A stretch of DNA of 46,721 nucleotides. It comes from an uncultured bacterium. GTDB lineage: Bacteria > Chlamydiota > Chlamydiia > Chlamydiales > SM23-39. The stretch covers positions 1 to 46,721 of the forward strand of contig CAYPMA010000001.1 of the NCBI GenBank assembly GCA_964411685.1, written 5' to 3'. A program made the translations under genes and the position numbers. This document shows positions 98 to 856 of the stretch, piece by piece (within the stretch, counting starts at the first letter, position 1; each line of letters starts with the position of its first letter). A model generated the notes under the pieces. The model ran no database searches and had not been told where the DNA came from. It saw only the letters and a list, made by a program, of their open reading frames with translations.

Positions 98-856
98 TTA
101 TTTTCTTATTTCTTCATGATTTTTATCTAGAGCAAGCAATTTTTTTTCGTATGGTAAATTCCAACTTTCAGGATAACAATAAGAAGGAGATAAAACTACA
201 TCAGGTTTATTATTTATTAAATATCTGTTCAGGTGGCTTTCATCATGCCATACTGCAATATAGTCTTTCTTCAAATCCTTTTCAATATTGTCAATATTGG
301 ATTTTAGTAGTTTAATAAAGTTGTCTTTTTTACCGCCGTAGAATCCTCCTGCAAAGTAACATTTGCCTTCTTTTTTTTCCACATATGCAGTAGATTTTTT
401 ATTAGTTTCGTAAGATCCTCTCTTATCAACAAAGCCAGGATGCTGTGTTGCTACTAAGCTTCCGAGTATTTCATCTCCAACAGGAGCCACAAACAACATG
501 TCTGCATCAATTGCAAAAAGATAGTCCATTTTATCGAATAATGATTTGTTTTTATAATATACGTGAAATCGTTTTAATGTATCATTTGGCCATCCAAGCC
601 TTTTTTGAAAAACGGATGTAACATCAGCATTATTTGGGAAATCTTGATCAGTAAAAACAAAAAATGAGACATTATGATTGTTTAAAAAAAACTTTCTTGC
701 AGAGTCTATCATTTTAATAGCGTATTTATCGTATTTCCCAGTTGCCATAACACAAAGGCCAATATTATATTTTTTTAATTGTATAGGTTTTTCGTAAGCA
801 GATACCATTGAGCAAATTGAGAAAAACATAACAAGAAGAAAAGTTTTTTTTATCAT
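98..856 (-). CDS. GT6-family glycosyltransferase (histo-blood-group A/B, alpha-1,3-Gal/GalNAc transferase-like) with N-terminal signal peptide or signal anchor
   Basis: 252-aa ORF. The C-terminal block [30 protein letters not shown] matches the recalled vertebrate ABO/alpha3GalT signature [21 protein letters not shown]. It has a DxD-type motif AIDADM and a donor-pocket-like block [10 protein letters not shown]. The N-terminus [22 protein letters not shown] is hydrophobic with an AXA-like site. Confidence 0.85.
   Translation of the reverse strand: [252 protein letters not shown]

Follow-up and report, generated by a model that had tools for sequence, protein, structure and literature searches.

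A leader-bearing chlamydial GT6 glycosyltransferase that probably adds a blood-group-A-like cap as part of a conserved gene cassette

What does a bacterial relative of the blood-group transferases make, and on which side of the inner membrane does it act, if it begins with an export-type leader and its gene neighbours do too? This question is raised by a gene of glycosyltransferase family 6 (GT6), the family of the human blood-group A and B enzymes (GTA and GTB), that lies near one end of a contig from an uncultured member of the Chlamydiales (CAYPMA010000001.1, assembly GCA_964411685.1). We analyzed positions 1 to 46,721 of this contig, and refer to this whole stretch of 46,721 nucleotides as the window. 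We consider it probable that the encoded protein is a retaining GT6 enzyme with a DxD motif and a leader of the Sec/signal peptidase I (SPase-I) type, which adds N-acetylgalactosamine (GalNAc) in alpha-1,3 linkage to an H-type acceptor as the last step of a conserved cassette. According to this proposal, a leader-bearing GT2 enzyme would add galactose (Gal), a role assigned by analogy only. A fucosyltransferase would then make the H epitope; this would be a GT11 enzyme in most chlamydial loci, and possibly a domain that we call X in the window and in Dependentiae. Finally, GT6 would take GalNAc from UDP-GalNAc and attach it, through an alpha-1,3 bond, to the Gal residue of the fucosylated (Fuc-alpha-1,2-Gal) acceptor, and the product would be a blood-group-A-like cap. 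Because it carries a Sec/SPase-I-type signal peptide, the GT6 protein would probably be targeted to or across the inner membrane, and would not be free in the cytosol.

The family assignment comes from both profile and fold comparisons. The protein matches the Pfam profile PF03414 (Glyco_transf_6) with an E-value of 1.8e-45 and 155.5 bits, against a cut-off of 25, over profile positions 69-312 of 313. A phmmer search of the sequences in the PDB returned the Bacteroides ovatus enzyme BoGT6a (E 5e-51) and human GTA (E 2e-35). An AlphaFold2 (AF2) model built on 32 homologues had a predicted local distance difference test (pLDDT) score of 92.3, and Foldseek aligned it with BoGT6a at a template modelling (TM) score of 0.83-0.89 and a root-mean-square deviation of 1.2-1.5 A, and with GTA at a TM score of about 0.8. 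The GT6 membership proposed in a preliminary description of the gene, which was made from the sequence by eye, is thus borne out by the PF03414 match and by the fold match to BoGT6a and GTA. The NCBIfam subfamily model NF041524 (Gltr_6) gave 213.2 bits, which is below its curated cut-off of 250; judged by this score, the protein is related to Gltr_6 as NCBI draws it, yet lies outside that subfamily. A C-terminal membrane-binding BHB domain is absent, as the 252-residue protein ends one residue past the end of the GTA alignment (residue 251).

Which GT6 enzyme is the best guide to its activity? A chlamydial DxD GT6 enzyme, PaGT6, has been described before (Thiyagarajan et al.; Pham et al.). It was assayed in 2012 and found to be Mg2+/Mn2+-dependent, to transfer from UDP-GalNAc to the H trisaccharide or 2'-fucosyllactose, and to be inactive on N-acetyllactosamine (PMC3516806; PMC3961637). 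PaGT6 and an enzyme of cyanophage P-SSM2 typify a metal-dependent, minimal-domain prokaryotic GT6 clade (PMC3516806), and in 2014 the DxD bacterial GT6 enzymes were counted as "two currently known" (PMC3961637). We identified PaGT6 as EFB42072.1 (236 aa, Parachlamydia acanthamoebae Hall's coccus), and its orthologue in strain UV-7 as WP_013924074.1 (249 aa; locus L092:9580-10329). PaGT6 and the window GT6 are 53% identical over 230 aa, have identical DADM, YFAGGFYGG and WHDESH blocks, and are both chlamydial proteins made of a minimal catalytic domain without BHB. They differ in that PaGT6 belongs to another sub-clade of the GT6 tree (a Parachlamydiaceae/Rhabdochlamydiaceae group) and has a single-domain GT2 as its neighbour, where the window has a triplicated GT2-X gene and GT32 genes. 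Given 53% identity and identical specificity residues to an assayed enzyme, the donor and acceptor of the window GT6 are most likely those of PaGT6, and the same likeness suggests that it too is metal-dependent. On sequence grounds, the window GT6 is a member of the already characterized metal-dependent (DxD) PaGT6-type clade and not a new kind of enzyme. The preliminary description had contrasted the DxD of this protein with the NxN of the Bacteroides enzymes. That contrast holds, with D117-A-D119 lying on N-A-N of BoGT6a, but a DxD bacterial GT6 is not new, as the DADM of PaGT6 makes plain.

The residues that bear on catalysis and specificity were compared in HMMER alignments, which reproduced the earlier by-eye alignments to the human A and B enzymes. 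IDADM falls on VDVDM of GTA (V210-D211-V-D213-M) and on FNANL of BoGT6a, and the donor loop aligns without gaps with egdFYYLGGFFGG of GTA and egrYYYAGGLSGG of BoGT6a. R86 corresponds to GTA R176 and G141 to GTA G235, and all four positions that discriminate A from B enzymes (R86, G141, A169, G171) are A-like or smaller. H139 and W203 align with the acceptor-site residues H233 and W300 of GTA. Across 32 aligned homologues, D117-A-D119, H139, W203, D205, E206, K245 and H247 are invariant and R251 is nearly so; the arginine of the corresponding K359/R365 pair of alpha3GT is reported to be conserved mainly in metal-dependent GT6 enzymes (PMC3961637). A wider search found 2,600 GT6 relatives, of which the closest 120 (55-85% identity) are the basis of the clade statistics given here. 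DADM is present in 120 of these 120, and F[AC]GGFYGG in nearly all. As the preliminary description had stated, the residues equivalent to GTA 266 and 268 are small, being part of the same gapless A-G-G found in the GalNAc-transferases BoGT6a and PaGT6. Its suggestion of a UDP-GalNAc donor, drawn from those small residues, gains support from the fact that this donor has been demonstrated experimentally for both of these A-G-G enzymes. GT6 specificity nevertheless changes with very few residues, as between GTA and GTB, and the 266-equivalent residue is Cys in a few homologues, both of which would suit a UDP-Gal donor and a B-type or alpha-Gal-type product. We regard such a donor, or a non-fucosylated acceptor, as improbable: all four discriminating positions are A-like, the A-G-G loop is common to the two assayed GalNAc-transferases (PMC3516806), and the linkage of fucosyltransferase genes to GT6, described below, argues against an acceptor without fucose.

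More distant GT6 enzymes share parts of this picture. BoGT6a (PDB 4ayj, 4cj8) is the best match among solved structures, at 38-39% identity, and has the A-G-G donor loop and the GalNAc/H-antigen chemistry that we predict for the window GT6, but it has NxN and is metal-independent. It also has no N-terminal leader, its residue 2 aligning with residue 31 of the window GT6, and its clade carries the C-terminal membrane-binding BHB domain (PMC3516806). The vertebrate enzymes (human GTA/GTB and bovine alpha3GalT), at about 31% identity, resemble the window GT6 in their DxD, catalytic Glu, C-terminal basic residues and the equivalents of H233, W300 and D302. The window residues equivalent to R176, G235 and 268 are GTA-like, whereas Ala takes the place of Leu or Met at position 266. 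The vertebrate proteins too have an N-terminal hydrophobic targeting segment, but they are type II membrane proteins of the Golgi that have a tail in the cytosol, a complete transmembrane helix and a long stem, while the window GT6 has a short leader of the cleavable type and no stem.

We next consider this leader. Leader calls throughout this work are rule-based (positive charge in the n-region, an h-region of about 7-15 residues free of charges, small residues at -3 and -1, and no Pro from -3 to +1) and do not come from a trained predictor. By these rules, the window GT6 has a Sec/SPase-I signal peptide, with MIKK as its n-region, V at -3, A at -1, and then YE. In the AF2 model, residues 3-20 form a lone helix (pLDDT about 75), and the domain begins at residue 31. 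In 110 of the 120 closest homologues, the catalytic domain is preceded by a hydrophobic N-terminus that is about 20-30 residues long, and the small-residue -3/-1 site is likewise found in 110. In this set the core is uncharged and hydrophobic with a median length of 13 aa (mostly 10-16), the net charge is +1.7 for the n-region and +0.7 for the segment after the core, and a median of 8 residues separates the end of the core from the first beta-strand. Thus, the leader with a VSA/YE site that the preliminary description had pointed out is upheld as to its Sec/SPase-I anatomy, while the idea that it is peculiar to this copy is not. As read from sequence, the leader anatomy of the clade is that of a cleavable Sec signal peptide and not that of a transmembrane anchor, and the window GT6 is accordingly predicted to be cleaved and exported. 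Two other origins of the leader were rejected. A wrong start codon that creates a false leader is ruled out by a GGAG at 865-868 on the minus strand, 8 nt upstream of the ATG, together with the leader being encoded in 110 of 120 homologues, one of them 85% identical. A lipoprotein or Tat (twin-arginine translocation) leader is ruled out as there is no twin-arginine, and Cys15 is neither conserved nor in a lipobox context.

If the leader is clade-wide, why has it attracted so little notice? The full-length UV-7 orthologue of PaGT6 has a leader of the same kind as the window GT6, MLTRSLKILIGLCLLFSHALYA/AN (the slash marks the predicted site). The gene call from which PaGT6 was expressed (Hall's coccus, 236 aa) starts after the leader, only 5 residues ahead of the catalytic domain, and the mass of 27 kDa given in the paper fits this 236-aa call. 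We found no discussion of a leader in the papers that we consulted, and this silence may stem from the leaderless gene call.

The window GT6 gene is transcribed divergently from five glycosyltransferase genes (Table 1); promoter-like hexamers on both strands of the region between them were not above shuffle expectation. The two GT32 genes among the five encode proteins with the basic tails KKRKTT and RSKKADV, for which a type I topology with the DxD domain outside is predicted. Two further leader-bearing GT32 genes were observed on another contig of the same genome (C38:3557-5580). We surveyed 91 GT6 loci (L001-L091) by clustering the neighboring open reading frames and scanning representatives with profiles. 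In 83-84 of the 91 loci, GT6 has a GT2 homologue no more than 10 kb away. Also near GT6 are a GT11 alpha-1,2-fucosyltransferase (PF01531) in 35 loci, an NAD-dependent epimerase/dehydratase in 28, FkbM methyltransferases in 17, and GT92 and a GT47/RXYLT1-like family in 10 each. A side observation is that these GT6 islands hold families of the eukaryotic Golgi type: GT11, GT32, GT92, GT47/RXYLT1-like proteins, nucleotide-sugar enzymes of the short-chain dehydrogenase/reductase (SDR) type, and FkbM methyltransferases. One genome of the same family has the gene order GT6-GT2-GT11, and in P. acanthamoebae GT6 shares its strand with a GT2 and a 332-aa protein, both of which bear leaders. In the genome from which the window comes, GT11 is found on another contig (PF01531, E 1e-27).

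This arrangement recalls the O-antigen locus of Escherichia coli O86, in which WbnJ is a GT2 beta-1,3-galactosyltransferase, WbnK a GT11 alpha-1,2-fucosyltransferase and WbnI a GT6 enzyme. Yi et al. (2005, cited in PMC3516806) reportedly showed that the trio builds the blood-group B epitope. The chlamydial loci likewise link GT2, GT11 and GT6, which would add Gal first, Fuc second and an alpha-1,3 cap last. Because the same trio occurs in E. coli O86, the simplest model for them is Gal, followed by Fuc-alpha-1,2, followed by a GalNAc-alpha-1,3 cap. The linkage of GT6 with GT2, plus GT11 or X, fits such an A-antigen-type cassette. The two systems differ in that the E. coli enzymes are leaderless, cytoplasmic and encoded in a Wzx/Wzy O-antigen cluster, with WbnI being NxN and Gal-specific, whereas here each member of the cassette begins with a leader, and there is neither a flippase nor a polymerase in the vicinity. 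Leaders are indeed common to the families at GT6 loci: N-terminal hydrophobic leaders occur in 86% of GT6, GT2 and X proteins, 91% of GT11, 87% of GT32, 100% of GT92 and GT47-like, and 74% of SDR proteins. The corresponding share is 0% for a neighboring helicase, and a crude background for the window's own genome is 35%. Across the families of the GT6 islands, the leader-bearing share ranges from 62-100%.

Could the acceptor instead belong to the host? GT6 might be exported past the periplasm, to the vacuole lumen or the host cell, and modify host Fuc-alpha-1,2-Gal glycans. A Sec-type leader is compatible with this, as is the restriction of the clade to obligate intracellular lineages, the Chlamydiota and Dependentiae. 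There is also a chlamydial precedent for a Leloir enzyme that works outside the cytoplasm on a host sugar nucleotide: Chlamydia trachomatis GlgA, which is type 3 secreted and has no signal peptide, uses host UDP-glucose that SLC35D2 imports into the inclusion lumen (PMC4829429). A search of 12 GT6-bearing chlamydial genomes with a single model, TIGR01472, left 9 of them, including the window's own genome and P. acanthamoebae, without an equivalog-level Gmd (GDP-mannose 4,6-dehydratase), although fucosyltransferase genes are present despite the missing match; the GDP-fucose for a bacterial H epitope may therefore not be home-made. GalE was above the cut-off in 8 of the 12, and lies near GT6 in two genomes (G202 and G112). 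The absence of Gmd is, however, judged on one model and leaves salvage aside, and the tight linkage of GT6 with GT2 and a fucosyltransferase suggests that this cassette also makes the acceptor. We therefore think a role as an effector very unlikely.

With the GT11 of the genome on another contig, attention turns to domain X, the second domain of its three GT2-X proteins. X had no match in Pfam and none among PDB sequences. Its AF2 model (pLDDT 92.2) has a GT-A fold and is nearest to the inverting enzymes GnT-I, TarP and SpsA, at a TM score of about 0.5. The domain is found in several arrangements: as GT2-X, alone, in a leader-X-GT6 fusion of about 545 aa, and as leader-X-GT32 (proteins P0172, P0181, P0187, P0194, P0197, P0202, P0229 and P0217). 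In the window, only the third paralogue keeps the invariant X motifs; the X domains of the first two (1005-4138, plus strand) are decayed, with 26-31% identity and with the FSFDRP and VDD motifs lost. Of 57 GT6 loci that span 15 kb or more, 28 had X only, 17 had GT11 only, none had both and 12 had neither (Fisher p 5e-7). Dictyostelium PgtA is a GT2-GT74 protein that acts as a beta-1,3-galactosyltransferase and alpha-1,2-fucosyltransferase and makes the H type 1 disaccharide on Skp1 (PMC6939170, PMC11468063). Like the GT2-X proteins, it consists of a GT2 domain and then a second GT-A domain, a likeness of domain order and fold only; unlike them, it is cytosolic and leaderless. GT74 has been reported to include bacterial alpha-1,2-fucosyltransferases (PMC6939170), and in the GT74 literature we found nothing on bacteria beyond that one sentence. 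X, for its part, is linked or fused to a GT6 of the type that needs a Fuc-alpha-1,2-Gal acceptor. Because the order of GT2 and then GT-A is that of PgtA, and because GT74 has bacterial members, it is an attractive hypothesis that X is a GT74-like alpha-1,2-fucosyltransferase that would supply the H acceptor. From comparisons of this kind we infer the parts that GT2 and X play, as well as the glycoconjugate that results.

Table 1. Features of the GT6 gene and its divergent neighbors in the window
Feature	Position	Strand	Remarks
GT6 gene	98..856	-	ATG start; 252 aa
GT6 domain layout			leader, residues 1-20; short linker, 21-30; minimal GT-A catalytic domain, 31-252
GT6 leader, residues 1-20	797..856	-	n-region KK, 13-aa uncharged hydrophobic core, V-S-A then Y-E
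D117-A-D119, DxD metal/UDP-binding motif, within AIDADM (residues 115-120)	500..508	-	GTA D211-V-D213; BoGT6a N95-A-N97
Donor-specificity loop, residues 166-175	332..361	-	A169/G170/G171 = GTA L266/G267/G268
W203-H-D-E206-S, conserved GT6 block	236..250	-	E206 = GTA E303; invariant in the clade
C-terminal K245...R251	101..124	-	equivalent to the alpha3GT K359/R365-type basic residues that touch the UDP diphosphate (PMC3961637)
Divergent intergenic region, 148 bp	857..1004	.	between the GT6 and GT2-X genes
Three tandem two-domain glycosyltransferase paralogues (519, 519, 576 aa)	1005..5865	+	hydrophobic N-terminal segment and basic patch, GT2, then GT-A domain X
Domain X, intact copy, residues 305-576 of the third paralogue	5047..5862	+	GT-A fold by AF2 model
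Two GT32-type (Gly_transf_sug) paralogues	5870..7950	+	signal-peptide-like leader, C-terminal hydrophobic span, basic tail

The remaining question is whether the leader exports the catalytic domain or holds it inside. The same chemistry could be carried out if the leader were an uncleaved tether that keeps the catalytic domain at the cytoplasmic face of the inner membrane. There it would act in the manner of WbnI, modifying a glycan linked to undecaprenyl or to the lipid A core, and its donor would be bacterial UDP-GalNAc. In such an arrangement the leader would play the part that falls to the membrane-binding BHB domain at the C-terminus in the NxN clade. This would agree with the normally cytoplasmic location of Leloir enzymes, and with the presence in the same genome of a bona fide GalE next to a PglC-like phosphoglycosyltransferase and Ugd. 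Several observations weigh against our main proposal, and the first two of them count in favor of a tether. First, about half of the GT2-X proteins, including those of the window, as well as the GT11 of the same genome, have a basic patch after the hydrophobic segment; by the positive-inside rule this predicts a cytoplasmic catalytic domain (C-in), so that the topologies predicted within the cassette conflict, and since the same families carry either leader type across genomes, one shared compartment is suggested. Second, the leader-bearing SDR nucleotide-sugar enzymes and methyltransferases need nicotinamide adenine dinucleotide (NAD) or S-adenosylmethionine (SAM), and are hard to place outside the cell. 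In free-living bacteria, the periplasm is not known to contain UDP-sugars. The segment that follows the leader of the window GT6, YEKPIQLKK, has a net charge of +2, which is less typical of a mature N-terminus, and the window has no flippase, polymerase or ligase. Two further points concern the proposed chemistry rather than the compartment: specificity can shift at 53% identity to PaGT6, and the mutual exclusivity of X and GT11 is weak evidence, as each changes only about 5 times on the GT6 tree, on which an independent-pairs test has no power.

The anatomy of the GT6 leader itself speaks against a tether. Its hydrophobic core is not long enough to cross a membrane, and the basic n-region and near-neutral following segment predict an N-in/C-out orientation. 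With only about 8 residues from the core to the first beta-strand, there is no room for a stem, and nearly all homologues have the -3/-1 site. The GT32 neighbors, in which a signal peptide is combined with a C-terminal span and a basic tail, have the features of type I topology. Altogether, export or action in the periplasm appears somewhat more likely from sequence than a cytoplasm-facing tether, and we consider the tether rather unlikely.

Signal-peptide-like N-termini are also found elsewhere in the window, in an M3 oligopeptidase (33219-35282, minus strand), an SH3_3-domain protein (29724-30875, minus strand) and a metallo-beta-lactamase-fold protein (35975-37006, minus strand). A bona fide adenylate kinase (45197-45844, minus strand; PF00406, E 9e-31) has its P-loop directly after a Sec-like leader, MRLKIICVFIFFTSTLLS/VD, which suggests that some nucleotide metabolism may take place outside the cytoplasm.

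We also asked how the gene is distributed. The closest named homologues of the window GT6 come from metagenome-assembled genomes (MAGs) of Chlamydiales, Chlamydiia and Simkaniaceae. PF03414 is present in one copy in the window's own genome. Its distribution in the Chlamydiota is patchy: it was found in 35 of 300 sampled genomes, which belong to 26 of 166 genera, and most carriers have one copy only. In a species-level genome collection, GT6 loci were found in Parachlamydiaceae, Simkaniaceae, Rhabdochlamydiaceae, other chlamydiae and many Dependentiae/Babeliales. A maximum-likelihood tree placed the window GT6 in a 97%-supported group of 16, in which Simkaniaceae-type chlamydiae are mixed with Babeliaceae, and PaGT6 in a separate 97%-supported group of 29. 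Such mixing of chlamydial and Babeliaceae sequences in the tree implies that GT6 has been exchanged between Chlamydiota and Dependentiae. A third host phylum, Pseudomonadota, whose name some records bear, is doubtful: the GT6 of one 'uncultured Pseudomonadota' MAG (L075) is nearly identical to that of a Dependentiae MAG (L076), with branch lengths of 0.05 and 0.03, and the taxonomic label of such auto-annotated bins is probably wrong. No viral relatives were found in a motif scan of IMG/VR limited to two exact peptide patterns.

As this type of enzyme has already been described, the assignment of the window protein to GT6 adds little by itself. What is worth following is the clade-wide export-type leader together with the conserved surrounding cassette. 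The DxD type occurs in about 12% of the sampled chlamydial genomes and is common to Dependentiae, and it may be much commoner in protist endosymbionts than the literature suggests. The linkage to GT6 also offers a testable function for domain X, namely making the H acceptor. If GT6 does act outside the cytoplasm, this would be an unusual mode of glycosylation that goes with life inside host cells, and it would have a bearing on the transfer of GT6 from prokaryotes to vertebrates that has been proposed. A broader and more tentative possibility, which we would not yet favor, is that the obligate intracellular Chlamydiota and Dependentiae have a Golgi-like toolkit of Sec-leader enzymes (GT6, GT11, GT2, X, GT32, GT92, GT47/RXYLT1-like proteins, SDR nucleotide-sugar enzymes and methyltransferases) that acts in the periplasm or vacuole lumen on host nucleotide sugars. 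If so, these bacteria would carry out an extracytoplasmic Leloir glycosylation that is impossible for free-living bacteria, and their GT6 would work in the topological counterpart of the Golgi lumen, which is where its vertebrate relatives act.

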